This document shows positions 35,357 to 62,002 of a stretch of DNA of 64,000 nt, in pieces (the stretch's first letter is position 1; each line of letters begins with the position of its first letter). Origin of the DNA: Candidatus Omnitrophota bacterium (lineage in GTDB: Bacteria > Omnitrophota > Gorgyraeia > Gygaellales > Profunditerraquicolaceae); contig JAPLLN010000049.1 in the NCBI GenBank assembly GCA_026387475.1, forward strand, positions 16,556 to 80,555. Reading direction: 5' to 3'. The notes beneath the pieces were generated by a model. It was not told the DNA's origin and searched no databases. It was given only the letters and a program-made list of their open reading frames with translations. Both the position numbers and the translations under genes were made by a program.

Positions 35357-35391
35357 CAGATTGGACATTAATTCTGCCCAGATTGGACATT
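35357..35391 (-). promoter_or_regulatory. Tandem pair of the 13-nt motif CAGATTGGACATT overlapping the stop codon and last codons of the 965-aa gene.
   Basis: Copies at 35357–35369 and 35379–35391. The stop codon (35368–35370) lies inside copy 1. The C-terminal NVQSGQN is encoded across copy 2. Confidence 0.5.
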
Positions 35392-38265
35392 CGTAAATGA
35401 CTGATTGTCAATAACTGTATACACTTTCCCCGAACTAGGGTTAGTTAATGTTAGGACTGATCCGGGTTCTTTAGGCAAAATAGTATTCACGCTGCCAACA
35501 GGAAGGTCGCCCTGGTAAACAACCGCCCTGCCATCTTTATAATCTAAGGTAACTTTCAGTGGCCCATGTTTAACTATGCCGTATTTGGGGTCGTTTTCGG
35601 TTGTAGTAAGATCATAATTCCCTGGTGCGATTTCAGCAGCTGCGTTATTCAGAGTGACTATTACAGGTTTACTAGCATCCGGTATAGACTGGGTTGGCTC
35701 AAAGAAGGAACTAGGAGCACTTGGCGGTATGGTGACGGCAATAGGGATCTGATTTGATTTTCCAGCGTCGTAGCCGGGTATCGGTACCGTAGTTAGGGTT
35801 TCAGAAGGCTGCATCACTTGCGGAGTCCTCGCTAAATCAGTTAGCGGCGGCGCGAGCGAGTCTCTGCTGGCAAACTCGGGAGTAACCGGTAAAGGCATCG
35901 GCTTTATGGGCAGCGTTCCCCAATTAAACGCCTCCGCATCAGCATCATTCCTCTCTAAGGCGTTGGACCTAACATAAACATCAGTTCTTCCGGTAACCGA
36001 ATTATAGATAGGAAAACGAGTCTCCGGGCCATTATAGTCGCGAGGCACCAATTCATATAATACTTTATCGGTTCCTTCCTTGTAAATGGGCTGTCCGGAG
36101 ACCCAAGAACCGCCTTCGGGAGCCAGATTTGGATCATAGACGACAGTAGCGACTGCCGGCTGATTCGGCGATACGGCTGAAGGGCTTACACGATTCTGCT
36201 CGAAGAAATTAACAGGTCCCGGAGATTTAAAGTCCTTCCATTTTGCCTCAAATTCTGCTACGGTCGGTTTTGTCGCTGGGTCAAACGGATCTCTTATCTT
36301 TGCCGGGGGTTCGTTTGGATGCTGAATCTGATATGCAGAATCTTTCAACCATTGACCAACATTCTCTGCGGCTTTTGTAACAGGAGAGACTGCACCCCTT
36401 TCTCCCCAAGAATCCTGCGCTTGTTTTGTCAGGTTCTCTAAATACTGTTCTTTTTTAACATCCTGCTCAGCTCTCATAGAAACGGGGAGCGGCGCTAATG
36501 TCTTTCCTTCTCCTTCGGGGCTTACTATCGGCGCCTCTGCGAAGGAGCTCGGATTACGCAAGGGAACATAAAGCTGCTTTGGTTTTGCTGAGTAGTCAGC
36601 AGGTACCGGCACCGTGGTTAGACCTTGCGAAGGCGGTTCTACCGTAGACGGCCGAGAGCCGGTGAGACCGGCTTCGAAAGAATCAACTGTTTCAGGTATG
36701 CTTACAGGAGCCGGATTGAATAGGCTTTGTGAAATTACCGGTAAAACCGGTAGCCCTGCATCAACTTCTGATGGCGGAGAAATATTCGGTTTAAACTCCA
36801 ATGGCCGTATTAAACCAACAGGCGCTTTCACCTGATAAAGCTTCTCATCTGGTAGACCACTACCCGGAGGGCCTGCAGTATTTATTTTATCAATAAAATC
36901 AGACGCGGATGCTTGAGGAGTCCCGCCCGGAAGGCCTAAAACTGCTCCAGTATTATTAATCTGCTCCTGCAAACCGGAAGAAATGCTCGGCTTATAGCCT
37001 CCTTCTTCCAGATTGAAACCCACAGGATACTCTGGTTTATTAGAAAGATAGGCTTCGGATAGTGCCGGATATGGCTGCGAAACTGCCGGAAGCGGCTGGC
37101 TTACCTGCTGCGCAGTTGATTGGGGTAGAGAATAACCGGACCATGTCCTAGCGTCTTCCGGAGAAGCGCCATTTCTTATCGCAGATTCGTATTGCCATTG
37201 CGGAGTATTCCACGCCGGCGCCTGTGAAGTAGCAGCTTCCTGCGCCTGCGGAAGAATCATAGGAAGAGGCGGATTAATATTATACGTCTTGACGGAAATT
37301 GGAAGAAGACTCTTTCCCTCCCAATCCGACGGAAGCTGTTCCATAGGATATTCGGGATACGAAACAGTCAACCCAGAAGGGGTTGTGGTCCGAATCGTAG
37401 CATTAGTATCACCTTTACCGGTAACTACCGGAGCTTCTATTTCCGGGGTTTCTCCTGTGCGCAAACCCAACCAATTACGGCCGGCGCCATCAAGCTTAGT
37501 CTGCTTAACTCCTGATGACATAGTTTCATAGCTGGTATTCAAGTCTAATTTATGAGCAGCTAAACTCCCCAGCGAACCAGTTACATTATACGCTCCGCTA
37601 AATGCCTGATTAATCACATACCTGTCCATCATACCTTTACCTTCGGTCATCTCGCTTGCCGCGATACTTAACAGATGGGAAGGAATACCTTGCACCAAAT
37701 CGCCTAAGGCGGCTTTTGAAACAGATCCACCGGCAAAATCTCCGGCCATACCTGCGGCAAGGCCGACCCACGGGCTATACTCACCCTTACTATTCGAAGC
37801 AGCATATATAATTCCGCTCTTGACTATACTCTCCGGTATGGCTCCGGGACTACCGCTGATCAACCCCGAACCCAAACCCGTTCCTAATGAACTTATCCCG
37901 GAGATAGCCTGGCCGCCCCAGCCGTAATAATTACCCATCGCCGATATTCCATAACTCAACTGGCCGGTGGCAAGATTAGAGGCATAACTATTCCCCCACG
38001 AACCAAGGGCGCTCATCGCGCTGAAATTGCTAAGATTCCCGCCGCTTGAAATCGCGCTTGAAGCCGCGCTCCCGGCAACAGAAGAAGCCACACCTATGGC
38101 TGTCCCCACGGCAAAAGTCCCTGCGTCAAAACTATCTGTCTTGCCGCCGCCGGCGGTAGAACGGGAGGCAAACGCCTTTGCGGGTAAAGAAAAGGATAAA
38201 GCGAATGCGCAGGCTAAACATACCGCGCTAATTTTTAATATCCTCATCCTTTTCATTTTAATCAC
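35368..38265 (-). CDS. Large secreted protein (965 aa). Signal peptide, then a Gly/Ser/Ala-rich N-terminal region, then Pro-rich segments.
   Basis: The ORF track gives a 965-aa ORF. It starts GTG(M)IKMKRMRILKISAVCLACAFALSFSLPAKAFA, a classic signal peptide. A long low-complexity G/S/A region follows (SSVAGSAASSAISSGGNLSN...). It is co-oriented with the Tad operon upstream. Confidence 0.75.
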   Translation of the reverse strand: MIKMKRMRILKISAVCLACAFALSFSLPAKAFASRSTAGGGKTDSFDAGTFAVGTAIGVASSVAGSAASSAISSGGNLSNFSAMSALGSWGNSYASNLATGQLSYGISAMGNYYGWGGQAISGISSLGTGLGSGLISGSPGAIPESIVKSGIIYAASNSKGEYSPWVGLAAGMAGDFAGGSVSKAALGDLVQGIPSHLLSIAASEMTEGKGMMDRYVINQAFSGAYNVTGSLGSLAAHKLDLNTSYETMSSGVKQTKLDGAGRNWLGLRTGETPEIEAPVVTGKGDTNATIRTTTPSGLTVSYPEYPMEQLPSDWEGKSLLPISVKTYNINPPLPMILPQAQEAATSQAPAWNTPQWQYESAIRNGASPEDARTWSGYSLPQSTAQQVSQPLPAVSQPYPALSEAYLSNKPEYPVGFNLEEGGYKPSISSGLQEQINNTGAVLGLPGGTPQASASDFIDKINTAGPPGSGLPDEKLYQVKAPVGLIRPLEFKPNISPPSEVDAGLPVLPVISQSLFNPAPVSIPETVDSFEAGLTGSRPSTVEPPSQGLTTVPVPADYSAKPKQLYVPLRNPSSFAEAPIVSPEGEGKTLAPLPVSMRAEQDVKKEQYLENLTKQAQDSWGERGAVSPVTKAAENVGQWLKDSAYQIQHPNEPPAKIRDPFDPATKPTVAEFEAKWKDFKSPGPVNFFEQNRVSPSAVSPNQPAVATVVYDPNLAPEGGSWVSGQPIYKEGTDKVLYELVPRDYNGPETRFPIYNSVTGRTDVYVRSNALERNDADAEAFNWGTLPIKPMPLPVTPEFASRDSLAPPLTDLARTPQVMQPSETLTTVPIPGYDAGKSNQIPIAVTIPPSAPSSFFEPTQSIPDASKPVIVTLNNAAAEIAPGNYDLTTTENDPKYGIVKHGPLKVTLDYKDGRAVVYQGDLPVGSVNTILPKEPGSVLTLTNPSSGKVYTVIDNQSFTNVQSGQN

Positions 38266-45897: not shown

Positions 45898-47679
45898 ATG
45901 GGTATTGTACATAAACTGATCCCCCAAATAAAAGACTTCATTTTAGAGCAGAAAAAGGCTGACCCAAAGATCAGCTGCCGCAGCCTCTCTGACCTTATTG
46001 ATGAGAAATTCCAGATCCAAGTCTCTAAATCCAGCATTAACGCTATATTCAAGGGATCCGGGCTTAGCATGCCTGTAGGGAGGAGTTCAGAAGGAAAACG
46101 CAAGCTGCGTATCGAAGCCCCTGCTCTGTTGCTTTCCGCGCCTGCGCCTGAACCCGAGCCGGCTCCTGAACCGGTCATTGAAAAGCCTGTTGAGCCCGCG
46201 CCTGAACCAATAATTGCAAAACCTATCGAACCTATGCCTGAACCGGTCATCGAAAAACCTGCTGCTCCGGCGCCTGAACCCGAACCGGCTCCTGAACCGG
46301 TCATTGAAAAACCTGCTGCTCCGGCGCCTAAACCAATAATCCAAAAGACTTTTAAGGAGTTTGAAAAAGTAGAATTTACCGAAACGCCGAGCAGCGGAAT
46401 CATACTCTTAAAAGCGGCGGATTATCTTATCAACGGAAATTACGACGCAGCCGAGATCATCAAAAAAAGGCTTAACCGCTCCGGCGGCAATCTCCCCGCC
46501 CAAACCGAGGCTTTTACCTTTTCCCAATTACCGAATTCCCTGCCGGCAAACCTTGAGCCCATAACCGGCATAAGGATGAGTCCCGAAGACCTGGATAATT
46601 ATGCTCAAGAGATAAATTCCGTTAAGACCTTGACGCTTGATATTTCCCGCGTAATAGCCAACTGCCTTGAAGAGGTGCGCTGCATAAAAGTTATACTCTC
46701 CGACGGAAACTCCTTCTACCTGGATGCCCAGATGCACTCCATCTGGTCCACCCCGCACATCCCTTACGATTTTTCTTCGACTGCGTCCGATATCAAACGC
46801 AGCGTTAACGATTACTTCTTCGCCGGAGAGCCCATCTCTTTATTTATGGCACCGGGCTATGATACACCCTCTAAAGACCTTTTTAATTTTATCGCCGGAA
46901 TGGAAGGGGTAAATAAAAAAATAACCCGCCTTACCGTCTGCGGGAACAGGTTCGAGGATATGGATACTGTCGCGATAGACGCACCCAAGAAGTATTATTA
47001 TATCTTCGGCGCCTGGCCGTGGCAGTTTGTAGGCGCGCGTAAGGTCAAGAAGATCGGCGAGTTTAAACCTTACCGTTCGCAGGTCTTAAAAAAAGACGCG
47101 CTTTGCGCCGAGCTTGATATAGATTTCATCAACCCCGAAACCAAAGAAGCGATCAACTTAAAGGGGTGCGCTTTAAAAATGAGCCCTGCGGAAAAGACCA
47201 GGCTGATCATTTTAAGCAACCTTACCGGCGAAAAAGCCCTACCCGCGGCTTTATGCGAGGCATATTTATCCCGCTGGCCGAATTTAGAAGAAGCCTTTCA
47301 GGATTACAGCCGCAAGATCGAACTCTTTACTTATACGGCGGAGGCCCGAGCCTTTTTCAGCCCGGAACATTTCAACTTGGAAGGCATCCCTACCCTAAAA
47401 GATGCCAAGACCGTAGCCGCGAATTATCTATTTACCCTGGATTCATTCCTTAAATGGCACCTTTTGCCGCAAGGGTATGAAAAACAAGATTTCACGGTAA
47501 CTGGGGCTCGTTTTTACGATTTAAAAGTGAACCTTAAAAAGGAAGGGAACTGTGTGGCGGTAAATTTCCAAATTCCTCAAGGATACGCATACCTTAACGA
47601 CCTGCAATACCTCTGCCGCCGCCTCAACGAAAGATTTATCCGCTTGAGCGACGGCCAGCGCCTCTGGTTCAATTCTTAG
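45898..47679 (+). CDS. DDE-type transposase-like protein (593 aa) with an N-terminal HTH-like region and a Pro/Glu-rich repeat linker.
   Basis: N-terminal segment KISCRSLSDLIDEKFQIQVSKSSINAIFK is HTH-like. The linker repeats APEPVIEKP(A/V) about 5 times. The C-terminal half has VILSDGNSF (D), MAPGYDTPSKDLFNFIAGMEG (D) and AYLSRWPNLEEAF (Y-x2-R-W-x3-E-x2-F, an IS4/IS1634-like third catalytic motif). No terminal inverted repeats were recognised flanking it. Confidence 0.5.
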   Translation: MGIVHKLIPQIKDFILEQKKADPKISCRSLSDLIDEKFQIQVSKSSINAIFKGSGLSMPVGRSSEGKRKLRIEAPALLLSAPAPEPEPAPEPVIEKPVEPAPEPIIAKPIEPMPEPVIEKPAAPAPEPEPAPEPVIEKPAAPAPKPIIQKTFKEFEKVEFTETPSSGIILLKAADYLINGNYDAAEIIKKRLNRSGGNLPAQTEAFTFSQLPNSLPANLEPITGIRMSPEDLDNYAQEINSVKTLTLDISRVIANCLEEVRCIKVILSDGNSFYLDAQMHSIWSTPHIPYDFSSTASDIKRSVNDYFFAGEPISLFMAPGYDTPSKDLFNFIAGMEGVNKKITRLTVCGNRFEDMDTVAIDAPKKYYYIFGAWPWQFVGARKVKKIGEFKPYRSQVLKKDALCAELDIDFINPETKEAINLKGCALKMSPAEKTRLIILSNLTGEKALPAALCEAYLSRWPNLEEAFQDYSRKIELFTYTAEARAFFSPEHFNLEGIPTLKDAKTVAANYLFTLDSFLKWHLLPQGYEKQDFTVTGARFYDLKVNLKKEGNCVAVNFQIPQGYAYLNDLQYLCRRLNERFIRLSDGQRLWFNS

Positions 47680-47783: not shown

Positions 47784-48284
47784 TTGGAAGGAGATGATTC
47801 TATGCCTAGGGGAGCGAGAATACTTTTAAGGAACGTGCTGTACCATATTATAAACCGCGGTAATCAAAAAGAACGGATATTCCTGGAAGGATCAGACTAC
47901 CAGGAATATTTACGAATATTAAAACACTATAAATGCAAATTTCGATTCAAGGTTTTCGGATATTGTCTAATGCCAAACCATGTCCACATAATGCTGGAGC
48001 TAAAGAATCCCCAAGACTTGGCAAAGATAATGCAATGCTTGACCCAAACTTATACCAAATGGTTCAACAAGAAATATGAAAAAGTCGGACACTTATGGCA
48101 GGGTAGGTTTAAAAACATGGTGATACAAAAAGATGATTACTTGATAAATTGTATATCTTATGTGGAAGCGAACCCTGTGAGGGCTGGCATAGTTAGGTTT
48201 CCAGCAGATTATTGCTGGAGCAGCTATAAAGACAGGGTATTTGGGAATAAAAATGCCTTGCTGGATTTACCCGATTCAACTTAA
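47784..48284 (+). CDS. IS200/IS605-like HuH tyrosine transposase (REP-associated tyrosine transposase-like, 166 aa).
   Basis: YHIINRGNQKERIF...GYCLMPNHVHIMLE (HuH motif H-V-H)...ISYVEANPVRAGIV (catalytic Tyr region)...YCWSSY. It is flanked on both sides by GGGACACCCT/AGGGTGTCCC hairpins, the REP-transposon-like arrangement. Confidence 0.7.
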   Translation: MEGDDSMPRGARILLRNVLYHIINRGNQKERIFLEGSDYQEYLRILKHYKCKFRFKVFGYCLMPNHVHIMLELKNPQDLAKIMQCLTQTYTKWFNKKYEKVGHLWQGRFKNMVIQKDDYLINCISYVEANPVRAGIVRFPADYCWSSYKDRVFGNKNALLDLPDST

Positions 48285-48723: not shown

Positions 48724-50880
48724 TTACTGGGCGCGGAAGATGTCTTCCGGCAGAGGGATGCCTTTGATCCTGAATTCATTGATAAACGACGGGACATAAC
48801 CGGTAGCCTGGAAATCTCCCAGGACATTATGCTCCTTATCCATCCCGGTCTGCTTAAACATAAAGATATCTCTTAAATCGATGTGCGACTCATCCTTCAT
48901 CCCGCAGACCTCAGTGACCTGCAATATCTTGCGGCTGCCGTCGGAGAGGCGGGCGGTGTGAATGATCATGTGTATGGCGGAGGCGATCATCTCGCGGATG
49001 GCCCTGATAGGAAGTTCTATCCCGGACATAAGTATCATGGAGTCAAAACGGGTCAGGGCGTCCTGTGTAGAGTTGGCGTGCACCGTAGTCATCGAGCCGT
49101 CATGGCCGGTATTCATCGCCTGCAACATATCCAGGGTCTCTACTCCGCGGCATTCGCCGATGATTATCCTGTCGGGGCGCATTCTCAAGGTATTCCGGAA
49201 AAGGTCTCTTATGGTGATGGCGCCCTTGCCTTCGATATTCGGAGGACGGGATTCCAGCCGGATCCAGTGATCCTGATGCAGCTTTAGTTCCGCGGCATCC
49301 TCAATAGTGACGATCCTCTCGTTATTCGAAATAAACGCCGAAAGTATGTTTAAGATCGTCGTCTTACCGCTACCCGTACCGCCGGAGACAATGATATTTT
49401 TTCTACAGGTGACCGCAGCCTGAATAAAATCCGCCATTGCCTTGTTTAAGGTGCGCAGTTCGATCAACTCTTCGGTCTTAAATCTTTCTTTGCGGAATTT
49501 CCTGATAGTCAAAGACGGCCCGGTCAAAGATAGCGGAGGGATAATGGCGTTAACGCGCGATCCGTCGGGCAGGCGCGCGTCAACCATGGGTACCGACTCG
49601 TCAATCCTTCTGCCGATGGGCGCTATAATGCGCTCAATGACTATTTTTACCTGCTCGTTAGAGATAAATTTCTTGCTGGTAGCCTCGATTTTTCCCCGGC
49701 GCTCGATATAAACCTCGTCTTTGTTGTTGACCATGATATCTGTTATCGTCGGGTCAGCGAGCAGGTCTTCCAACGGCCCGAGGCCGAGCGCCTCATCCAG
49801 CATTTCTTTGACTAACTTTTTACGCACATCGGGTGAAGTAATAAAACTCCCCGCCTCCTCCGTGAGAAAATTCGTGACCATGACCTCGGCCTTATCGCGC
49901 AATTCTTTATTCTTTTTGGAATCGCTAAATGCCTTGGAGTCAAGGCGCTTTAAATTTAATTCTTCTATCAAGCGGGCGTGTATTCTGCGTTTAAGCCTTA
50001 TAATCTCGTCCGCCTCTTCGTAAGGATCGGGCCCGATAAGCGCTTCGGTCAACCCCTCCTTCTGCCAAAAATCGCCGCTCTTGGCCAACGTGCCTTCTTT
50101 TAATTTTAAGGCGTCTATCTCGGCGTGTTCGATATAAAGTTTTTTATTCGTGGTCAATTCATGGGCGAATTCCTTGATGGCCAAAGATATCTTTGACCTG
50201 GGGCTATCCAATATCACCGGAATGCTCTGATTGATCGCCTGGCCCGTAATGCGTCCCTCCGACGGGATGCGCGCGACGATATCGACCGGTAAAGAAACGC
50301 GCACCTCATGCCAGCTTATACTGGATAAAGACTCCGCGCGGTTTAAGACCACCCTGACCATAGAGAGCGGGATATGCATAAATTGCAGGGTATCCAGCGC
50401 CCACTTAGTTTGGTAGACCGAGAGCACATCCGGGGTCACCACAAATAAAACCAGGTTCGCCTGATTCAATACGCCGGCGAATGTCTCGGTGAAGATCTTT
50501 CCCGCGTCGATTATGATGTAATCGTAATCTTTATCGTAGAGCGTAAAAACGCTTTTTATCAATTCAGGGTCAAGATGAGGGGATTGTTGCGGGCGCAATA
50601 CAGCGGGAAGAAAACTGATCCCCAGGCCCGGGGCAGTGGAAAGAAAATCTTTCTTGACCACTGATTCGGGATTTCTTTTTATCTGGGCCATCAGGTCCAC
50701 CATGGCCTTCTGGGGCTTTAAATTCAGCATGTGGGCCATGTCGCCCGCGCCAAAGGTATCCAGGTCTATAAGACAGACGCGCTTGCCTTCGTCTTGAGCA
50801 AGGCTCACGGCGAGATTGGCGGCGACCAGGGTTTTACCCACGCCGCCCTTAGTGCTGAATAAGACGATTCTCTGGGACAT
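48724..50880 (-). CDS. cpaF: Fusion ATPase (718 aa): N-terminal ParA/MinD-like (CpaE/TadZ-like) domain plus C-terminal CpaF/TadA secretion ATPase.
   Basis: N-terminal MSQRIVLFSTKGGVGKTLVAANLAVSLAQDEGKRVCLIDLDTFGAGD is a deviant Walker A of ParA/MinD type. C-terminal ...VSGGTGSGKTTILNILSAFI...VTIEDAAELKL...IIIGECRGVETLDMLQAMNTGHDGSMTTVHANS is CpaF/VirB11-like. Confidence 0.8.
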   Translation of the reverse strand: MSQRIVLFSTKGGVGKTLVAANLAVSLAQDEGKRVCLIDLDTFGAGDMAHMLNLKPQKAMVDLMAQIKRNPESVVKKDFLSTAPGLGISFLPAVLRPQQSPHLDPELIKSVFTLYDKDYDYIIIDAGKIFTETFAGVLNQANLVLFVVTPDVLSVYQTKWALDTLQFMHIPLSMVRVVLNRAESLSSISWHEVRVSLPVDIVARIPSEGRITGQAINQSIPVILDSPRSKISLAIKEFAHELTTNKKLYIEHAEIDALKLKEGTLAKSGDFWQKEGLTEALIGPDPYEEADEIIRLKRRIHARLIEELNLKRLDSKAFSDSKKNKELRDKAEVMVTNFLTEEAGSFITSPDVRKKLVKEMLDEALGLGPLEDLLADPTITDIMVNNKDEVYIERRGKIEATSKKFISNEQVKIVIERIIAPIGRRIDESVPMVDARLPDGSRVNAIIPPLSLTGPSLTIRKFRKERFKTEELIELRTLNKAMADFIQAAVTCRKNIIVSGGTGSGKTTILNILSAFISNNERIVTIEDAAELKLHQDHWIRLESRPPNIEGKGAITIRDLFRNTLRMRPDRIIIGECRGVETLDMLQAMNTGHDGSMTTVHANSTQDALTRFDSMILMSGIELPIRAIREMIASAIHMIIHTARLSDGSRKILQVTEVCGMKDESHIDLRDIFMFKQTGMDKEHNVLGDFQATGYVPSFINEFRIKGIPLPEDIFRAQ

Positions 50881-50883
50881 TGG

Positions 50884-52569
50884 TTATTCTAAACGGTAGC
50901 TTACAGGCACCTCTACCCACAGATCTGCCTGCTGTATTGTGGGCGGGAATGGCGGATAGCTGGAAACACTCTTGGCGACATTCACTGAATTATCGTCGAG
51001 GACTTTATACCCCGAAGAAGAACTGACTGATACGTCAAGCAACTGACCTAAATAAGAAAGGTGAAGTTTTAATTTTGCCGTGCCTTCAAAACCCGACTGT
51101 TTTGCCGAAGCCGGATAAATAAGATTATCCAAAATCCTGCGCTGGACAACAGCCGCGTAATTCCTGATATTCTCCGGGATCGCCATGGCGGGCGCGGAGA
51201 CTTCTGCCTGGACCTTGGAATCTGCCACAGGCATAGAGGTAGTTGTTTTCTTTGCCGTCGCCTTGATCGCCTTGACAATAGCCGGAGTAAGGGTTACAAA
51301 CAGCTCCGTATCCCCGCGGTTTCCCGCTCCGCCGCCGGTGGACTTGACGGTCTGCCTGAACATTGCGCCCAAAATAGGTATATCGCTGAAGAACGGGGTT
51401 TTTCTTACCTGGTCTTCTTCTTTCTGTTTGATCAACCCGCCGATCAGCAAAGTCTGCTCGTCATTAAGATAAAGTTCGGTGGTGAAATTACGCTTGGATA
51501 AAGGATAAGCCTTGGCAGTAATGGAAGTGGTGGTCCCGATAGTCTCCGCTTCTCCGACTTCGCTTACCTGGACATAAACCGAGAGCTTGATCCTGTTGTC
51601 TTCAGTCACCGTCGGCTTGACCTTCAGCTTGATGCCGAATTCTTTATATTCTATCTGCACGCCGCTGTTTACCTGTGTAGTAAAAGTTGAGAACGTAGGT
51701 TTTTCTCCGCCGACAAACATCTCCGCTTCTTTCCCGCTCTGGCAAGTCAGCCTCGGCCGGCTTAAAATGCGCGCCTTCCCGTCCCTTACCAAGGCATCCA
51801 GCGACCAGGTAAATGCCGCGCGTCCGTAATTGGATATCTGGAATAATTTATCCAGGTGCGAGCCCGTAAAAGTGCGCGTAAACGATTCGGTAGACCCGGG
51901 ATTAGCCCCGCCTGCGGTAGCGGTCACTGTTGTCGCGCCCACGCCGGGTATCCCGGGAGAGCCGATTTCGGTAACCGTAATATTCCCCGGCCAGCTGAAA
52001 CCCAGAGTGCTCGTCGAATCTTTATTCATCTCCAGGACCTGCACGTCGATCTCTATCGAGGTCTCTTCTTCCTTTATATTGATCAGGTCGACTGTCTTGG
52101 CCTTTAAAGTGCCCAGCGCCGTCGCTATTCTTTCTTTGTCCGCCGCGGTCTTCACAGCACCCAAAAGCATGATCTTATTTTCTTCGTCCGCTGCCCGGGT
52201 ATAAACATTAGGCAAGTCCAGGTCTTTTATTATTGCGTCCACCCGCTCCTTGATCACATCCATATTCTCGATTACGACTTTTACTTTATAAGACTGCTCG
52301 CCGAAACCGTCCCAGATGACCAGGGTAGTCGTCCCTAATGATTTAGGATTGATGGTCACTTCGTTTTTATTCACGTTGGCTACATCCGCGACATTAGGGT
52401 TGCCCACTACGACGCGGTAGGCGTTATTTACCGCCACCACCTTAGGTTCTCCCATATACACCTTAAGCACTTCCGGATTCTCGTCGCCGACTAAGGCGTA
52501 ATTGCATAAAGGCAGGAACGCGTTAAGACAAAACATTACGAAAATTCCGAGCAGTAATTTGTTTTTCAT
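50884..52569 (-). CDS. cpaC: CpaC/RcpA-type secretin (561 aa) with a C-terminal TonB_C-like domain.
   Basis: N-terminal pilus-formation region ...GEPKVVAVNNAYRVVVGNPNVADV.... Secretin core ...ARILSRPRLTCQSGKEAEMFVGGEKP...LLIGGLIKQ...IPILGAMF...TELFVTLTPAIV. The tail YPASAKQSGFEGTAKLKLHLSYLGQLLDVSVSSSSGYKVLDDNSVNVAKSVSSYPPFPP matches the TonB C-terminal pattern YP..A...g.eG.v.v.f.i...G.v..v.v..SSG...LD..a..av....fpP. Confidence 0.75.
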   Translation of the reverse strand: MKNKLLLGIFVMFCLNAFLPLCNYALVGDENPEVLKVYMGEPKVVAVNNAYRVVVGNPNVADVANVNKNEVTINPKSLGTTTLVIWDGFGEQSYKVKVVIENMDVIKERVDAIIKDLDLPNVYTRAADEENKIMLLGAVKTAADKERIATALGTLKAKTVDLINIKEEETSIEIDVQVLEMNKDSTSTLGFSWPGNITVTEIGSPGIPGVGATTVTATAGGANPGSTESFTRTFTGSHLDKLFQISNYGRAAFTWSLDALVRDGKARILSRPRLTCQSGKEAEMFVGGEKPTFSTFTTQVNSGVQIEYKEFGIKLKVKPTVTEDNRIKLSVYVQVSEVGEAETIGTTTSITAKAYPLSKRNFTTELYLNDEQTLLIGGLIKQKEEDQVRKTPFFSDIPILGAMFRQTVKSTGGGAGNRGDTELFVTLTPAIVKAIKATAKKTTTSMPVADSKVQAEVSAPAMAIPENIRNYAAVVQRRILDNLIYPASAKQSGFEGTAKLKLHLSYLGQLLDVSVSSSSGYKVLDDNSVNVAKSVSSYPPFPPTIQQADLWVEVPVSYRLE

Positions 52570-52574
52570 ATTTT

Positions 52575-53471
52575 TTATTTGTATACGGGGACCCTCTCCT
52601 TCTGAAGGCCATGATATACTTCGATGAAACTTATAGGTTTAGGCTCATCCGCTCTTTGCTGCGGAGGCATGACATACTGGAAAAGAGTATCCCATGTCGC
52701 TAATTGCGTGGGCTCGACCTTGGCATCCGTCGGAGAGCGCAGGACCAGGCGTATCTTACCCTGCTCCTGGACAAAAGACAAAAGGCCGGCCTCCTTGGGC
52801 GAAAGCGCCAAAGTTATCAGAGCAGAGGACTCGGTCGCCTGCTGCTTGCCGTATCTGGCAAGCTGTTCCATTGCCGGGGCTGTTCCGCCTGTCTCCTGGC
52901 CTACGGCAAGTATCAAGACATTCTGGAAAAGAGGTATAGAGGTAAGCTGCGTCACGGGCCTGCCTTCGACAACTTGTATCGGGATATTTACCAGCGCGAT
53001 GACATCGACATAGTCTCCGGCTTTGATCATCCCGACGAGTGTTGAGGCGTTATCCGCGACGATCGTTATAGCGCGCTTGCCTACGGGAGTAAGAGAGGCG
53101 AGATCGCCGGAACGCTTAAAAGAAAGTTTGTCCAGCGTTACCTGTTCGCCTTTTGATATAGGAGCGACCGTAAGCATGCCGGATATTCTGTCCACGGACT
53201 TGACCGCCCCGCCTTCTACGCGGTTATTGGGGACTATTTTTGCTTCCAGCCAATCGGGGTCGATCACGACTCCCTGCGCGATATCTTTTTTAGCAATCAG
53301 CACCGGGGTCTGGTTCGCCTGAATAGCTTCCAGTTCCTGTTTGGCGCGCAATCTGGCGGCGCGGTTCTGCTCGTCAAGGTAAACCTTGATCATAAATATC
53401 GCGATCAACGCCAGGCCGATACCGATGATAAGTATTATCTGCTGTTTCTGCAGTTGAATGGGTAGGCGCAT
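52575..53471 (-). CDS. cpaB: Flp pilus assembly protein CpaB/RcpC (298 aa).
   Basis: N-terminal TM anchor, then SAF-like segment ...VLIAKKDIAQGVVIDPDWLEAKIVPNNRVEGGAVKSVDRISGMLTVAPISKGEQVTLDKL. Confidence 0.7.
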   Translation of the reverse strand: MRLPIQLQKQQIILIIGIGLALIAIFMIKVYLDEQNRAARLRAKQELEAIQANQTPVLIAKKDIAQGVVIDPDWLEAKIVPNNRVEGGAVKSVDRISGMLTVAPISKGEQVTLDKLSFKRSGDLASLTPVGKRAITIVADNASTLVGMIKAGDYVDVIALVNIPIQVVEGRPVTQLTSIPLFQNVLILAVGQETGGTAPAMEQLARYGKQQATESSALITLALSPKEAGLLSFVQEQGKIRLVLRSPTDAKVEPTQLATWDTLFQYVMPPQQRADEPKPISFIEVYHGLQKERVPVYK

Positions 53472-53472
53472 A

Positions 53473-54375
53473 TTATTTTATTTTCCCTTCGTAGATCTCG
53501 ATGCGGGCGGAGCTGGAGAGCTTCCCGACGAGGTCATCAAGCTTCTGCTGCTGTTTTAGAAAGGTCAGCCCCTTCTTGATATCTTCCCACATGTCCGTCA
53601 GTGATTTTTGCTGTCCGCCTTTTTTGGCTTCCAGCTTAATGATGCAATAACCGTCGGGAGTCTTAAATACCGAGCTTACGCGGCCTACGTCCAGCGTGTC
53701 CGCGAAAGCCACCGCGTCAAACTGAACACTCTTAGTACCTTTCTTAACGTAGCCGAGGTCTCCGCCGTTCTTGGCGCTTGCGCTCTTAGACTTTTCTTTG
53801 GCCAGGCTGGCGAAATCAGCGCCCTGCAAAAGCTGGATAAGAATATCGCGGGCATCCTGCTCCGACCCGACGACTATCTCTCTGATCTCTCTCTGTTCAG
53901 GGTCTTTCAACTGATCCTTATATTTATTGTAATAGTCTTCGATCTCGGCGGAGCTGACATCCGTAGTCTCGGCGATCTGTTTGACCAAGACCATCAGCAG
54001 AAGTTCCTGGCGGGTCTTCTGCAAAACGCGCGTAACGTCTTCGTTGCGGTCAAGCCCTTTATCCGCCGCGTCCTGCGCCAGAAGCGTGCGCCGGATCAAA
54101 TCGTTTTTAAGATGATTTACTTTCTGTTCCTTGGTGGTGATCTTTAACTCCGGCTTATCCTCCGGGACGCTGGAGTTGTATACGTTGATATCCTGATCCA
54201 GGTCGTCCTGGGTAATGACCTCATTATTTACCTTAGCCACTACCGTGCCTGATTTCACTTCCGAACCAAGCGATATATTGACAGCCGCTTTCTTCCCTTG
54301 GAAGAGGCCGATCTTATCGCAACCGGTCAGCGATACGGCAATGAACAGCGATACTATAAAGATGAATACTCTCAT
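53473..54375 (-). CDS. Parvulin-type peptidyl-prolyl isomerase (PrsA/SurA-like, 300 aa), lipoprotein-like signal.
   Basis: MRVFIFIVSLFIAVSLTGC (lipobox). Parvulin segment ...ASAKNGGDLGYVKKGTKSVQFDAVAFADTLDVGRVSSVFKTPDGYCIIKLEAKK. Confidence 0.65.
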   Translation of the reverse strand: MRVFIFIVSLFIAVSLTGCDKIGLFQGKKAAVNISLGSEVKSGTVVAKVNNEVITQDDLDQDINVYNSSVPEDKPELKITTKEQKVNHLKNDLIRRTLLAQDAADKGLDRNEDVTRVLQKTRQELLLMVLVKQIAETTDVSSAEIEDYYNKYKDQLKDPEQREIREIVVGSEQDARDILIQLLQGADFASLAKEKSKSASAKNGGDLGYVKKGTKSVQFDAVAFADTLDVGRVSSVFKTPDGYCIIKLEAKKGGQQKSLTDMWEDIKKGLTFLKQQQKLDDLVGKLSSSARIEIYEGKIK

Positions 54376-56773: not shown

Positions 56774-57153
56774 AAAACTGGTAGCCCTAATCGAAAACAG
56801 GTGGAACGAAATTGTATCCGAATTAGGACAACTATATCAGTTCAATGAGCTTTGCAGCTCGTTAACTATAAGTAATTAAACCGATTATATCAAATATGGA
56901 TACCAAGTCAATAAGGAAATCTTATAGCGGGTAAGAAAAGATGCTGCAAAGCGGAGCACAGGAGAGAATTTTAGCGGAAGATGAAGCACGATAAGAAGTT
57001 AGGGCAAAAACGGGCTATGTCGTTTATGTCGCAAATAACTGAAGGCACCGCAGGATTAGACTGCTTCTTATGATTTGAACTACTTTAGTAGGGTCTTAGC
57101 AGTGAGAGCCAATATATACAATTATATAAAAAGAGGTATTAGGAAAGAATGTT

Positions 57154-57768
57154 TTACTGTGCTTCTTCTACTGACATAGATAACGTTTTGATATTCGGGA
57201 GACCAATTCGGTTTAAATAAGAAAAAAATCGTTGTGAAAGGCGTTCGCGGAACAATTCATTTATCGTTGCAAGATAGAATTTTTTATATTTTTCCTCAAA
57301 ATAACAGAATGGAACTGAATAGTGTATTTTGAAATCAATGACCATTTCAGGAATCTGAAGAGCTACATCACTATGAAGAAATTGATATCGTGGGTCGCTA
57401 TTCTTTTTAATGAATTTCCACAAGTCGCTTCCAATATTTACGGGTTTGACTGAAAACAATTCTTTTAAGTGTTCGCCCTGTTTTACAAGTTCAGCTGGAA
57501 ATGCTGGAAGAATTAAAATATTGGGCAGGTATTGATTGAATTCGATTAACCCTTCGGGGGTAGGTTTCGCTACTTTCTTCTTTTCTCCTTCTTCAAGGTC
57601 ACAGTCTTGACTAATAACAATGACATAAGGAAATTTTAAGTCAACTTGGGCGCTACCTTTTCCAATAATATAAAATTGTACATCCCTTAATATGTCGCCC
57701 TGACATATCCTTTGACAATTGTGCTTCTCATAAACGGTTGTTATTTTGCTTTTCAACATATCCAACAA
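57154..57768 (-). CDS. Hypothetical protein (204 aa); third gene of the XRE-adjacent cassette.
   Basis: ORF track. No recognised domain (…CQGDILRDV…YVIVISQDCDLEEGE…). It overlaps the upstream 71-aa ORF by about 40 nt. Confidence 0.5.
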   Translation of the reverse strand: MLDMLKSKITTVYEKHNCQRICQGDILRDVQFYIIGKGSAQVDLKFPYVIVISQDCDLEEGEKKKVAKPTPEGLIEFNQYLPNILILPAFPAELVKQGEHLKELFSVKPVNIGSDLWKFIKKNSDPRYQFLHSDVALQIPEMVIDFKIHYSVPFCYFEEKYKKFYLATINELFRERLSQRFFSYLNRIGLPNIKTLSMSVEEAQ

Positions 57769-57943
57769 CGTGAGCAGTAGCTCTGCTTAAAATATATCTC
57801 CGATTTTTTACAGCATCAGCAAAATTACCGATAGCTACTTCTGCGCTTGCCTCGTTTCCTATATCTTGATGAACTGTTTGAGAAAAACCTGCTCCAGTCG
57901 TTGATTGAATAAAATAATTATAAGCAATCAGATAATCTTCCAT
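57728..57943 (-). CDS. Small hypothetical protein (71 aa); middle gene of the cassette.
   Basis: ORF track. Tightly packed: its start abuts the stop of the 252-aa gene at 57944. Confidence 0.4.
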   Translation of the reverse strand: MEDYLIAYNYFIQSTTGAGFSQTVHQDIGNEASAEVAIGNFADAVKNRRYILSRATAHVVGYVEKQNNNRL

Positions 57944-58702
57944 CTACTCTACCTCCATTATCTCTCTCAAGCCATCTTTTATGCTCTTTTCAAATAACCC
58001 ATCTGCTTCATCATTAAATCTCTCAATACAGTCAAAAACATTACTTTCGTTAAAATCCTGTGTAAAAAAATCAAAATCTAATATAAATTCTTTTCGTCTA
58101 ATTTTTGCAGGAAATTCACTATTAATAAAACCATACGTAAAATTGACTTTATAATCATCGTGATTTATTACAACTTGGCTCATCGCTCTCGATACATCTT
58201 CTTTATTATCGAGAAATTTGTTTACTACATAAGTTAATGAAGAATCAATGTGTCGCCCCCATTCAAATGGATTACCCGTTTCTAAACGTATTTGATTTAT
58301 ATATCTTAAACCTAATCGATTATATTTAGACGGTTTGTAGAGTTCAATAAAAGACGCGATTACTTTTTTAGTAATAGTATCGAACTCCGTAAAATGTTGA
58401 TATTTAAAAAACTCTATCGATATATGATTGAAGGTGAGGCTTATCTTTTTTGTCTTATTTTCATCAAAGAAAATGTAAATAGGGTATTCTTTTCTCTCAT
58501 CTATCATTTGAGCCTTATTTACAGTAGCTTTATATTCTACTAAATTATTTACTTCGCGTTTCGGAAAGACACCGCTTACTTTTGCAGTAAAGTTATCTGC
58601 ATTTTGCTTTAAAGCGTGTTCGGCTATCGGGGCAAAATCAATTCTGCAGATAACGTTCGTGAGGAAGTTTTTCTTATAAATTATTTTTTTAGGCTTGGGC
58701 AT
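57944..58702 (-). CDS. Hypothetical protein (252 aa); first gene of the cassette. N-terminus resembles what I recall of the uncharacterised TIGR04255 family (unverified).
   Basis: MPKPKKIIYKKNFLTNVICRIDFAPIAEHA.... A candidate promoter TTGATA-N15/16-TATAAT lies just upstream on the minus strand (around 58735–58765). Confidence 0.5.
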   Translation of the reverse strand: MPKPKKIIYKKNFLTNVICRIDFAPIAEHALKQNADNFTAKVSGVFPKREVNNLVEYKATVNKAQMIDERKEYPIYIFFDENKTKKISLTFNHISIEFFKYQHFTEFDTITKKVIASFIELYKPSKYNRLGLRYINQIRLETGNPFEWGRHIDSSLTYVVNKFLDNKEDVSRAMSQVVINHDDYKVNFTYGFINSEFPAKIRRKEFILDFDFFTQDFNESNVFDCIERFNDEADGLFEKSIKDGLREIMEVE

Positions 58703-58854
58703 CTTATTTAACTGGAAGTCACTACTATAGGAGAATTATAACATTGTAGAAGAAAATATCAATTAAAATTATTATGGCAAATAGGCTTGCCCGAAATAAT
58801 ACAGGGAACCACTGCAACATCTTTACTCTTTAGTTTTATTCCGGAGGATTCAAA

Positions 58855-59130
58855 CTATAAATTATTTTCAGCTTCTTTGATGAACCTGCTTAATGGTAGA
58901 TTTAACGCCATAGCTATTTTGTATCCGACACCAATCCCCATATCTACCTTGCCCAATTCGATTTTACTGACATAAGTGCGATGTATCTCCGCCATATCAG
59001 CAAAATTCTCTTGGGAAAGATTCAGCTTGTGGCGTCTTCTTCTAATAGCAATCCCAAGCTCCTGCCTGAATTTTTTAGTCTTGATTTGTCTTTCCATAAG
59101 GTTTATAATCTCATAATGTAGCCTATTCAT
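58855..59130 (-). CDS. XRE-family helix-turn-helix transcriptional regulator (91 aa).
   Basis: ...LGIAIRRRRHKLNLSQENFADMAEIHRTYVSKIELGKVDMGIGVGYKIAMALNLPLSRF... is the HTH_XRE pattern. Confidence 0.7.
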   Translation of the reverse strand: MNRLHYEIINLMERQIKTKKFRQELGIAIRRRRHKLNLSQENFADMAEIHRTYVSKIELGKVDMGIGVGYKIAMALNLPLSRFIKEAENNL

Positions 59131-59198
59131 CTACATACGATAGTCTACAAAATATAAGACGAGTAACCTTGTATTTTCCAAAAGGAAATGGAGAGATT

Positions 59199-59960
59199 AT
59201 GAATAAATTATTAGTGCTGTTCGTTGCTTCATATTTTATTGTAATTGAATTCCTTTATGCTGCCCCTGTGGATGTGCCTACAGTAATTCAGGGTCTGGAA
59301 GGTAACATCTTCAAAGATAAAAAATTAGGCATAGCACTATCAATAGCTGGTGAAACAGATTTTTTAAGTTCAAGAAAATTAGATGAGGCAGATTGGTGGG
59401 GTGGTGGCACTTCAAAAGTAAAAGGTCAATTTTATACCACCAAGATAATCCTAACAGTTATCAATAAATTTGATATTTATGGTATTTTCGGGAAAGCAGA
59501 GAATTTGGAATCCAGAGATGCACAAGGAGGTAGCACTAAACCTAAAGATAAGCTTACTTGGGGTGCAGGATTAAGTATGCCTATTTATGAATGGAAGAAT
59601 TATGGTATTAAGTTTTTTGCTGATACGAAATACAGGGCAGTAAATAATATTGACTATAATAGCAATATTCAACAACCTCCTTCCCTGACTGGCGATATCC
59701 TGCCGAAATTTCTGGTGGATTGGCAAGAATGGCAAGTTGCTTTTGGCGCAGCCAAGAAATTTAAGTATTTTATGCCTTACGGTGGTCTTAAGTATTCTGA
59801 TTTCAAAGAACTTAGTGGAGATAGAGCTAACTATGCTGACACTAATGTTGGAATATTTGTTGGTTGTGCTATAACTCCAATAAAGGAATTTTCTGTTGAC
59901 TTGCAGGTTCGCGTTGTTGACGAAACAGCAGTTGCAATAAAAGCTACTTATAAATTTTAG
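59199..59960 (+). CDS. Secreted beta-barrel outer-membrane-protein-like protein (about 253 aa from ATG 59199; the ORF track starts at 59169).
   Basis: RBS GGAGAG lies 4 nt before ATG 59199. Signal peptide MNKLLVLFVASYFIVIEFLYAAPVD. Alternating amphipathic strands and a C-terminal ...AIKATYKF with a terminal aromatic residue, an OMP beta-barrel signature. Confidence 0.55.
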   Translation: MNKLLVLFVASYFIVIEFLYAAPVDVPTVIQGLEGNIFKDKKLGIALSIAGETDFLSSRKLDEADWWGGGTSKVKGQFYTTKIILTVINKFDIYGIFGKAENLESRDAQGGSTKPKDKLTWGAGLSMPIYEWKNYGIKFFADTKYRAVNNIDYNSNIQQPPSLTGDILPKFLVDWQEWQVAFGAAKKFKYFMPYGGLKYSDFKELSGDRANYADTNVGIFVGCAITPIKEFSVDLQVRVVDETAVAIKATYKF

Positions 59961-60076
59961 GCATAAAGAGAACTGGACTGCTCGAGACATAAAGGATACT
60001 CCGGACGACATAAGAAAAACGCTTCCTCTCGATAATTTACCTCCCATTCTTCCAAACTACCCCGTAGAAATATCGC

Positions 60077-60104
60077 TTGACAAAAGTGAACGCGTATGTA
60101 TAAT
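60077..60104 (+). promoter_or_regulatory. Near-consensus sigma70 promoter TTGACA-N16-TGTATAAT upstream of the MerR-like gene.
   Basis: TTGACA at 60077–60082, extended -10 TGTATAAT at 60097–60104, RBS AGGAG at 60114–60118, ATG at 60125. Confidence 0.5.
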
Positions 60105-60124
60105 TTAATAAACAGGAGATTGCT

Positions 60125-60994
60125 ATGGAATATGACTGGAATAATGCACGGCGAAATTACATTTACTACGAAGCGAGCGATTACAGCGTAGCTAAAGAGC
60201 TTTATCCGCTCCTTCATAAACCCTTCCTGACCCTGAAGAAGGTCGAGAATATCATTGATGATATTACCTACCGCAAAATCAATCTTTGGTGCAATGACGA
60301 GTTAGTCTCTGATTCAAGAGAAGATAACGATGCCGGTTGGCGAAAATTTTCGTATATTGATATCGTTAAGCTTCTGCTTATTACTGATTTGAGAAAATTT
60401 AATATGCCAATTGATGATATTAAAACCATCATCAACAAGGTCTCACATACAATCTTTACTCAACTCGTCAAACCTACGACAATAAGGGTGTTAGAGTTAG
60501 AATACTTTTATCTAAAGGCGCAGAGCGGGAACAGAATAGCTCTGCTCATAGATTTTAAGAAAGAGCCTATCGTGGTCTTCGGAACAGAAGCAAAGACAAT
60601 GGTAGATTATCAGGCAATCCGAAAAGCTGATTCTCCGCTCTTGATACTTCCCTTCTTCTCTTACGTTCAGAAAATAGCCGGTCTTTCAAATCATACGATA
60701 TCCATAAATGAGAAAACGTCAATGAGTGATGTAGTGCTCAAGCGTTTCTACGCTCCATCTTCACAGGAACAAAAGATTATAGGCTTGATTAGAAATAAGG
60801 GCTACGAAGAAATTGCTATCAAGCGGAGCAATAACGACGCAATCGTTATCAAAACGAAACACAGGGAAAGCGGGAAATTCACCGATAAGGATGTCATTGA
60901 CTTGATAAATAAACGAGATTATCAAAGCGTAACAGTAATAACGGACAAAGGGCAGAAAGTCGCTCTGATTCAGGAAGCAAATATAAAGGTTTAG
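60125..60994 (+). CDS. MerR-like HTH domain protein with an uncharacterised C-terminal domain (289 aa).
   Basis: ...DITYRKINLWCNDELV...FSYIDIVKLLLITDLRKFNMPIDDIKTIIN resembles the MerR HTH plus dimerisation-helix pattern. A strong promoter and RBS lie upstream. Confidence 0.5.
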   Translation: MEYDWNNARRNYIYYEASDYSVAKELYPLLHKPFLTLKKVENIIDDITYRKINLWCNDELVSDSREDNDAGWRKFSYIDIVKLLLITDLRKFNMPIDDIKTIINKVSHTIFTQLVKPTTIRVLELEYFYLKAQSGNRIALLIDFKKEPIVVFGTEAKTMVDYQAIRKADSPLLILPFFSYVQKIAGLSNHTISINEKTSMSDVVLKRFYAPSSQEQKIIGLIRNKGYEEIAIKRSNNDAIVIKTKHRESGKFTDKDVIDLINKRDYQSVTVITDKGQKVALIQEANIKV

Positions 60995-61079
60995 TGTATC
61001 GAGAACAACTCGGACTCTAATCCTTATTATTTAACCGTTCGCGGAGAGTATCGGTAACGAATCGGGCTCTACGTTTTAA

Positions 61080-61277
61080 GTGGAGCCTACTATGCTCTCC
61101 GTTGAACAGTGCAAGAAATATCTACCGGCGGGGAAATATACCGACGAAGAGATTGAACGAATGCGGGATGAACTCTATCAGGTCGCAGAAATTTTAGTCG
61201 ATGATTTTATTAAACAAAGTGGTGAAGCAAAAAAGTTTGTTAGATTTTCGACTTCATTTGCGTCAATTCAATTATAG
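61080..61277 (+). CDS. Small hypothetical protein (61–65 aa; likely start ATG 61092).
   Basis: ORF track. GGAG at 61082–61085 lies upstream of ATG 61092 (MLSVEQCKKYLPAGKYTDEEIERMRDELYQVAEILVDDFIKQSGEAKKF...). Confidence 0.4.
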   Translation: MEPTMLSVEQCKKYLPAGKYTDEEIERMRDELYQVAEILVDDFIKQSGEAKKFVRFSTSFASIQL

Positions 61278-61303
61278 TAGAGCATAAAAAAGGAGCGCGA
61301 GAT

Positions 61304-61999
61304 ATGAATATTAAAAGACTTATAGCAAGAGAGGGTCTTGTTTTAGTTGGAATTGTAGCAGCAGGAGCATTCCTAACCTTTTTGGGCTCTTGTCTTGAAA
61401 ATTCTATCGCGCATAAATATAAAATACCTTATGAAGATGTCGTTTGGGACGATGATTTAGAAAAAATAAAAGCGAATATTTCCAAGATGGACGCCATCGG
61501 AGTATCTGCAAATGAGATTGACAAATATTTATTATCTGAAGGGTTAACGCTTAAAGAAGCAAATAAATTATGCTTAAGACCAAAGCGTGATTATTATAAA
61601 GAGGAAATTCAAGGCAAGCAACCTCAAGTAGATTTATCTTCCTATTCCGATGAAGAACTTATGAAAATAGTTGGTTTCAGCCAAAAGGAGCAAGAGGCGC
61701 TCAAAGAATTGCGGGTTATCAGAGAAAAGTATCCTGAATATAAGGATTTGGACGACGTTACGCTGGTCTCTAAATTAGGACAAAGATTTCCTCAATATCA
61801 AAGCGTGAGCCAAGTCATAACCTCAATAACTCATCCTGCGATTGTGCGAAAGAAAACGAACATTTCCACAAAAATTATCGCATCTATTACACCTAAAATG
61901 GGTTCGTTGGGGGTTTTTATCTTGATTTTGGGTTATCCATTATATCTACTGTTCAGATTTATTCTATGGGCAAAAAGAACATTAAAAGCAGGAGCGTGA
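61304..61999 (+). CDS. Membrane protein (231 aa); paralog A of a tandem pair with conserved N- and C-terminal TM segments.
   Basis: RBS AAGGAG upstream. N-terminal MNIKRLIAREGLVLVGIVAAGAFLTFL and C-terminal ...GVFILILGYPLYLLFRFILWAKRTLKAGA are shared with the next gene. Confidence 0.6.
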   Translation: MNIKRLIAREGLVLVGIVAAGAFLTFLGSCLENSIAHKYKIPYEDVVWDDDLEKIKANISKMDAIGVSANEIDKYLLSEGLTLKEANKLCLRPKRDYYKEEIQGKQPQVDLSSYSDEELMKIVGFSQKEQEALKELRVIREKYPEYKDLDDVTLVSKLGQRFPQYQSVSQVITSITHPAIVRKKTNISTKIIASITPKMGSLGVFILILGYPLYLLFRFILWAKRTLKAGA

Positions 62000-62002
62000 G
62001 GT

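Follow-up and report, generated by a model that had tools for sequence, protein, structure and literature searches.

A TonB_C domain fused to the C-terminus of a Tad-type secretin in Omnitrophota: a putative docking module

We analysed a 64,000-nucleotide stretch of a Candidatus Omnitrophota genome (contig JAPLLN010000049.1; this whole stretch is called the window below) and found that the gene at positions 50884 to 52569, on the minus strand, encodes a Tad-type (CpaC/RcpA-like) secretin that ends in a genuine TonB_C domain of ~95 residues, joined to the C-terminus of the channel protein. A first-pass annotation, made from the sequence alone, had proposed a secretin with a TonB_C-like C-terminal domain in a Tad context, and this is borne out by Pfam, NCBIfam, AlphaFold2 (AF2) and Foldseek. 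We discuss below the possibility that the fused domain docks or anchors the channel.

The reading frame starts with ATG, encodes 561 aa and occupies exactly these positions (Table 1); a public protein (P0001) that NCBI names 'TonB family protein [Ca. Omnitrophica]' is 100% identical to its product. The assignment to the Tad type rests on the secretin core (PF00263), the N-terminal pil_N domain typical of CpaC and RcpA, and the operon context, all of which are present. The NCBIfam equivalog models for secretins (GspD, PilQ, MshL, SctC) gave partial matches, all below cutoff, and the nearest solved secretins are those of A. caldus (8JVB/9WFD) and RcpA of P. aeruginosa (8ODN), with an alignment that ends at query residue ~436-440. 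As in RcpA/CpaC secretins, the channel would be a gated ~13-15-mer in the outer membrane. At the N-terminus there is no SHLS motif: the protein begins with a cleavable signal peptide, not with a TonB-type membrane anchor, and this signal peptide, whose family consensus ends in ...YAxD, is the least conserved stretch of the secretin. In P. aeruginosa, the domain homologous to pil_N binds a beta-hairpin of RcpC (PMC12307814). Pfam places pil_N, Secretin and TonB_C above their gathering cutoffs and BON, which the first-pass annotation had also envisaged, only below threshold, the match of residues 103-165 to a YscD BON-like domain being weak; it finds neither an STN nor an AMIN domain in the secretin.

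The tail matches the Pfam family TonB_C (PF03544) with 50.9 bits (gathering cutoff 24.6, E=2.1e-13) over profile positions 2-79 of 79, and the NCBIfam model TIGR01352 (tonB_Cterm) with 47.0 vs a cutoff of 27.1. The TonB C-terminal signature quoted in the first-pass annotation is found in the protein as written, the motif YPxxA...GFEGTAKLKLHL...SSSGYKVLDD...YPPFPP lying at residues 485-543. A profile built from 33 tails aligns over its full length with solved TonB C-terminal domains (CTDs), the best being that of H. pylori TonB (5LW8/6SLY, E=5e-9). AF2 modelling of the tail alignment gave a confident TonB/TolA CTD fold (pLDDT 94.5, pTM 0.83), in the order helix, short helix, strand, strand, helix, strand (alpha-alpha-beta-beta-alpha-beta). 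When this model was compared with the PDB using Foldseek, the top 26 matches were all CTDs of TonB, TolA, HasB or FusB; the best, the H. pylori TonB-CTD (6SLY, residues 179-285, TMq 0.78), aligned over 100 columns including the extra N-terminal helix. No LysM, OmpA_C, SPOR or AMIN fold was found among these PDB matches, and a LysM-like wall-binding fold for the tail is thus unsupported by the fold search. No solved structure combines a secretin with a TonB_C domain; the TonB CTDs match the tail separately. The alternative that the first-pass annotation had itself named, a low-complexity extension with no TonB_C match, is ruled out, as is a chance match, by the high-confidence fold and by the Pfam and PDB matches.

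Several positions of the tail are invariant or nearly so (Y471, Q476, R478, Y485, P486, G496, G508, S519-G520-Y521, D525 and Y538-P-P-F-P542). They include the 'YP' motif of TonB at the start of the domain: of 70 family members, at least 90% have Y485 and all have P486. The tail also has a signature of its own subfamily, SSGY..LDD...YPPFP, in which Y538-P-P-F-P542 is subfamily-specific.

The fusion is kept in related Tad secretins. PF03544, PF13629 and PF00263 occur together in all of the best 120 homolog clusters (identity down to 44%), of which every named one is Candidatus Omnitrophota. In a second set, drawn from GTDB with one genome per species, the best 80 loci of 286 relatives all match the query through residue 559-561; in every locus there is a single TonB_C module, and the secretin carries it. 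The fraction of sequences sharing the top residue of a column is 0.72 in the tail, with no gaps, as compared to 0.69-0.70 in the N-terminal domains, 0.79 in the secretin core and 0.37 in the linker; selection thus acts on the tail as it does on the other folded domains. A query made of the end of the secretin plus the tail, run against a library of representatives at 50% identity, found 33 clusters at E<=1e-30 and 293 at E<=1e-10, and most of the top 150 are proteins of 510-570 aa with a single match stretch spanning the junction between secretin and tail.

In a further search outward, the query was the secretin portion of the divergent member P0247 with the tail removed. Down to ~39% identity, essentially all full-length relatives carry the tail. 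The entries that lack the PF03544 label are few and mostly short fragments, of which P0334 and P0337 were confirmed to be broken off ~30 residues after the secretin domain; in the full-length P0325, a divergent tail was found by a tail-specific hidden Markov model (E=3e-19). The nearest outgroups (<=37% identity), which include a 'pilus assembly protein N-terminal domain-containing protein' of Armatimonadota, stop 4-23 residues after the secretin domain, as canonical RcpA does. Because the relatives down to ~39% identity carry the tail and the outgroups end early, the tail can be regarded, by sequence comparison, as marking the clade of Tad secretins from Omnitrophota. A handful of records carry the labels 'uncultured Planctomycetales', 'bacterium' or, for one cluster, archaeon; these are presumably loose or mis-binned labels.

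The TonB_C module is predicted to hang from the secretin core on a disordered tether of ~30 residues; in the full-length AF2 model, pLDDT is ~30 for residues 435-462. The tethers of 257 family members have a median length of 26 aa (range 8-349) and a composition rich in E, K, A and S, with only 7% Pro. The tether is the most variable region after the signal peptide, and secretin P0130 (874 aa) is an example with a very long one. By homology with RcpA, the tail would emerge outside the barrel.

The number of modules is not fixed. One module was found in 240 of the 257 secretin-plus-tail proteins and two in 17; the tandem pairs are seen, for example, in the Omnitrophota Tad secretins P0118, P0128, P0143, P0144 and P0185, and secretins P0190 and P0209 have long K/E-rich extensions, of up to ~500 aa, past the TonB_C module. 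Closely related modules also occur without a secretin, in tandem arrays of 3-7 (P0135, P0198, P0200, P0222, P0230, P0257), some of which are preceded by a signal peptide alone. P0135, from Omnitrophota and of the same TonB_C subfamily as the tail, consists of a signal peptide and 5 modules, each with an SSG..LD...PYPFPF signature; P0198, from candidate division KSB1, has 7, P0222 has 5 and P0230 has 4, while P0257 joins 4 modules to an M56 (BlaR1-type) peptidase. Such arrays are hard to reconcile with force transduction. As P0135 has nothing but modules after its signal peptide, and as the copy number on secretins is one or two, the domain looks like a modular binding domain rather than a force transducer.

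What might such a domain do on a secretin? We tentatively favour, by analogy, a passive docking or anchoring module built into the C-terminus of the Tad secretin, which may do in cis the job of the belt proteins of other systems, because the C-terminus is the pilotin site of RcpA and the neighbourhood of the secretin has no conserved gene like TadD or CpaD. With one tail per subunit, ~13-15 of them would sit outside the barrel, just under the outer membrane, and form a crown of TonB_C modules around the channel. The crown would dock the channel to a periplasm-exposed partner in the envelope, with no input from the proton-motive force (PMF), and binding would follow the usual mode of the TonB_C family, in which a short peptide of the partner is bound by beta-strand addition. 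In this way the tail would serve assembly, localisation or anchoring, as the TadD pilotin or the OmpA-like CpaD do in trans. The first-pass annotation had suggested that the tail, by interacting with a partner, could anchor the channel or gate it. RcpA-TadD and CpaC-CpaD are precedents that make anchoring or docking plausible. A tail that hangs on a floppy linker and is expected outside the barrel is, however, unlikely to gate the channel directly; the protein also has no anchor or motor motif, and no ExbB/D gene was found in the window or among the conserved neighbours.

The searches for accessory and partner genes were made in the window and among the conserved neighbours of the 80 loci. Neither contains a TadD-like or an OmpA-like/CpaD-like lipoprotein. 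The neighbours gave no match to a pilotin family, and OmpA-like and AMIN domains are absent from the secretin and from the conserved genes around it. An 888-aa TPR protein of the window was considered as TadD and rejected, since it is without a lipobox and far larger than TadD. There is likewise no TonB-dependent receptor and no second TonB_C gene in the window or in the conserved neighbourhood. We then looked for a 'box', defined as a short conserved motif within a variable terminus of a conserved neighbour. The only such element is the C-terminal hairpin of CpaB, which was set aside as its known partner is the N-domain of the secretin (PMC12307814).

Several points weigh against a docking role fulfilled in place of a pilotin or belt. 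The gene for a pilotin or an anchor could lie in another part of the genome, and the 888-aa TPR protein is indeed encoded downstream. No partner of the tail was found, and there is no obvious orphan box motif in the peptidyl-prolyl isomerase (PPIase), CpaB, the 80-aa membrane protein or the DUF192 protein. The placement of the tail comes from the homology with RcpA, which is aligned only to residue ~440. Finally, a polymeric ligand, for instance peptidoglycan, would suit the tandem arrays no less well than a specific peptide partner.

This last point leads to a close rival, in which the crown of TonB_C modules binds the cell wall and fixes the secretin to the sacculus, like the AMIN domains of PilQ or, as has been proposed, the CpaD belt of Caulobacter; we consider it rather doubtful. 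A link to peptidoglycan is commonly needed by the secretins of Tad and type IV pili, the short tether would keep the module near the interface between outer membrane and peptidoglycan, and the copy number, from one or two on secretins to three to seven in the stand-alone arrays, resembles that of multivalent wall-binding modules. The lack of OmpA-like and AMIN domains in the secretin and its conserved neighbours points in the same direction, and the C-terminus of E. coli TonB has reportedly been seen to bind peptidoglycan (Kaserer et al. 2008). However, the fold matches only TonB/TolA-type CTDs and none of the LysM, OmpA_C, SPOR or AMIN folds, the module is roughly neutral (median net charge -1 over the 257 proteins), and this fold is established to bind peptides by beta-strand addition. 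One might also speculate that the tails are receptors for a cargo or substrate, catching a Ton-box-like strand of the giant (>10,675 aa) protein encoded next to the locus, of a 965-aa secreted protein or of minor pilins, and so coupling the Tad/T2SS-like apparatus (T2SS, type II secretion system) to the export or surface display of that cargo. The locus does lie directly upstream of the giant open reading frame (ORF) in this window, in the same direction, this arrangement has been reported as conserved in Omnitrophota and proposed to serve the function of the giant protein, and TonB_C/TolAIII domains recognise short N-terminal peptides of diverse partners, among them TonB-dependent transporters, TolB and phage g3p. 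We nevertheless find it improbable: it is entirely inferential, the tails are expected outside the barrel and not in the lumen through which substrates pass, and no box motif was found. Equally improbable to us is the related picture of an unpowered TonB-type domain used 'in reverse', anchored in the outer membrane and holding or handing over a cargo such as a giant surface protein. If the tails did receive cargo, they would physically link the Tad machine of Omnitrophota to the display of giant proteins associated with predation.

A powered version of the contact, in which the tail pairs with an inner-membrane Ton/Tol-like motor (through a true TonB CTD or ExbD) and the PMF opens or remodels the secretin, is very improbable. 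TonB CTDs can dimerise. In P. aeruginosa, TonB3/PocAB is needed for the assembly and localisation of type IV pili by a mechanism that is not known, and an interaction of TonB3 with PilQ, whose N0 domain resembles the signalling domain of FpvA, has been speculated. Yet the protein has no transmembrane anchor, SHLS motif or spanning domain, its tether is too short for the periplasm, and no ExbB/ExbD-like gene was found in the 64-kb window or among the conserved neighbours of the 80 loci. As for a neutral fusion without function, arising by mis-assembly, by a frameshift or by read-through into an adjacent tonB, nothing speaks for it beyond the general possibility in metagenome-assembled genomes, and its likelihood is negligible. 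The same uninterrupted architecture recurs in hundreds of independent assemblies from at least 80 species, the tail has invariant residues and no gaps, and the cpaEF gene starts only a few nucleotides past the stop codon of the secretin. An assembly or frameshift artefact is effectively refuted by these conservation data.

Table 1. The secretin, its parts and the features around it (positions in the window; n/80, number of the 80 related loci with the feature)
Feature	Position	Strand	Evidence and remarks
Tad-type secretin with C-terminal TonB_C, whole gene	50884..52569	-	ORF list, Pfam, NCBIfam; 561 aa + stop
Signal peptide (about residues 1-25)	52495..52569	-	Sequence MKNKLLLGIFVMFCLNAFLPLCNYA: basic n-region, hydrophobic core, A-x-A-like cleavage site
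pil_N beta-sandwich (residues 32-98)	52276..52476	-	Pfam PF13629 T2SS-T3SS_pil_N, 53 bits; pLDDT ~90
Second periplasmic alpha/beta (N3/BON-like) domain (residues 103-165)	52075..52263	-	AF2 alpha-beta-beta-alpha-beta, pLDDT ~90
Secretin core (residues 259-433)	51271..51795	-	Pfam PF00263, 135.7 bits vs cutoff 27.5, full profile coverage
Flexible tether (residues 434-465), predicted	51175..51270	-	AF2 pLDDT about 30-34
TonB_C module (residues 466-561): extra N-terminal helix 466-482 and Pfam core 482-560	50887..51174 (core 50890-51126)	-	Pfam, NCBIfam, AF2
CpaB/RcpC alignment-complex protein, directly upstream	52575..53471	-	TIGR03177, 143 bits vs cutoff 71; Pfam RcpC and SAF; 77/80
Lipoprotein SurA-like PPIase (lipobox LTGC)	53473..54375	-	Pfam Rotamase_2, Rotamase, SurA_N_3; 73/80, same position
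CpaE(TadZ)-CpaF(TadA) fusion ATPase, 718 aa, directly downstream	48724..50880	-	MinD/ParA-type 3-250, T2SSE 365-647; 78/80
IS200-like Y1 transposase	47784..48284	+	PF01797; same place in 20/80
593-aa ORF with PAPEPEP/VIEKP repeats	45898..47679	+	No Pfam match; same position in 59/80
Flp-like pilins	44798-45154, 44444-44767, 41995-42324, 41582-41992	-	Sub-cutoff Flp_Fap and Class_III signal matches only
TadB	43549-44412	-	Pfam T2SSF
TadC	42664-43536	-	Pfam T2SSF
965-aa secreted Pro-rich protein	35368..38265	-	No Pfam match
888-aa signal-peptide protein with multiple TPR repeats	32498..35164	-	
Giant stop-free frame, at least 10,675 codons, off the window start	2..32026	-	Directly downstream of the Tad locus, same direction
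Low-GC island	~56800..64000		34-40% GC vs ~47% elsewhere

The secretin gene belongs to a complete Tad (type IVc) locus (Table 1). Its genes lie on the minus strand, save the inverted 593-aa ORF and the transposase beside it, in the order small membrane protein, SurA-like PPIase, CpaB/RcpC, secretin, CpaE-CpaF, DUF192, Flp-like pilins, TadB, TadC, pilins and TadE/G-like genes, and this order is conserved in the 80 related loci. The CpaE-CpaF protein is a second clade-typical fusion of this machine. The SurA-like PPIase encoded directly upstream of cpaB, without counterpart in model Tad systems, is a candidate for a dedicated chaperone or accessory of the secretin. That the 593-aa ORF is an insertion splitting the locus can be ruled out, as it occupies the same position in most of the related loci, usually in the orientation of the tad genes, and is merely inverted here. 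In many related loci a FIST sensor, a histidine kinase and a response-regulator-GGDEF protein lie upstream of the Tad genes; that side of the window is instead a low-GC island that encodes mostly unannotated proteins, together with an XRE-type helix-turn-helix protein and a MerR-type regulator.

On the other side, the 965-aa and 888-aa proteins sit between the Tad genes and the giant ORF, and neither was found in the 80 related loci within 8-kb flanks. The N-terminal 1000 aa of the giant ORF give a marginal match to Peptidase_C39 (23.9 bits vs a cutoff of 22). This ORF, following the Tad locus, matches the published 'giant genes' that lie behind a T2SS/Tad-like locus in Omnitrophota. In the description of West-Roberts 2023, gspD, gspE, gspF, rcpC, a Rotamase_2 PPIase (reported there too as a conserved member of the locus) and genes with class III signal peptides precede the giant gene; Seymour 2023 took the same system to be a Tad complex and analysed a phylogeny of RcpA. 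It is the same locus, and all of its listed genes are found in this window. Both papers are silent on a TonB domain of the secretin.

Full-text literature searches turned up no account of a secretin fused to TonB_C. The fusion is thus apparently undescribed, with both of its halves visible in public annotation and the locus itself published; the fusion of a TonB_C domain is not a new principle, and its function here is still inferred. At NCBI these secretins go by 'TonB family protein', at JGI by 'pilus assembly protein CpaC'. Under the NCBI name, the outer-membrane channel is concealed from surveys of Tad systems and the counts of 'TonB' proteins are inflated. A 2026 Omnitrophota preprint lists 'TonB-domain' genes flanking pilus loci, not recognised as part of the secretin, which are probably explained by this naming. 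The accessories of secretins, such as pilotins and wall anchors, vary from one system to another and are still being worked out for Tad machines. Here a phylum-level clade has apparently fused such an accessory to the channel, borrowing the C-terminal fold of TonB and TolA, which is otherwise known almost only as the working end of inner-membrane force transducers and which would serve here as a stand-alone, unpowered adaptor. The fusion offers a defined handle on how a Tad secretin is positioned and stabilised, in a machine that adjoins the giant genes of Omnitrophota and is thought to underlie their predatory or parasitic life style.

Compared with the known transducers, the secretin has only one of their parts. 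TonB and TolA consist of an N-terminal helix, whose SHLS motif engages ExbBD or TolQR, a middle domain that spans the periplasm and a CTD that binds its targets by beta-strand addition (PMC12204202). The fusion shares only the CTD and lacks both the SHLS helix and the Pro-rich spanning domain. With the CTDs of TonB, TolA, HasB and FusB, it has in common the family cutoffs, the YP motif and the alpha-beta-beta-alpha-beta fold, but the domains of TonB and TolA sit on an inner-membrane helix, whereas this one sits on an outer-membrane channel and has its own subfamily signature. With a signal peptide at its N-terminus and a short tether that is not Pro-rich, the fusion cannot use the known mechanism to transduce PMF, and no ExbB/D gene was found in the window or the conserved neighbourhood; the protein belongs to the TonB_C family without being a TonB. 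The STN domain ('Secretin and TonB N-terminus', the secretin N0 or signalling domain of TonB-dependent transporters) is N-terminal, unrelated to the TonB_C tail and absent here, although it is the one link between the names 'secretin' and 'TonB' that textbooks give.

Compared with RcpA and CpaC, the protein has the same pil_N domain and secretin core and is encoded in the same operon (CpaB/RcpC, CpaE/CpaF, TadB/TadC, Flp-like pilins and TadE/G-like proteins). Where RcpA stops after a short tail, this secretin continues into a tether and a TonB_C domain. The TPR pilotin TadD of P. aeruginosa, a lipoprotein that rings the barrel and is essential for assembly, has a groove that takes up the last four residues of RcpA (PMC10499894). 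In Caulobacter, the TadD ortholog is dispensable; there, a spoke-like belt linking CpaC to peptidoglycan has been modelled for the OmpA-like lipoprotein CpaD (PMC13170226). As RcpA uses TadD and the CpaC of Caulobacter uses CpaD, accessory belts outside Tad secretins are real, functionally important and evolutionarily interchangeable. The S-domain of GspD with its pilotin, the AMIN domains of PilQ and the CpaD belt are likewise add-ons that localise, stabilise or wall-anchor a secretin. Among these, the S-domains, like the tip of RcpA, are also C-terminal and outside the barrel; the helical S-domain of type II and type III secretion systems is absent here, its place being taken by a disordered linker and then the TonB_C fold. 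The AMIN domains stand at the N-terminus, and CpaD and TadD are lipoproteins in their own right, whereas in this secretin the putative accessory is a TonB_C domain in cis, of a different fold and a different origin.

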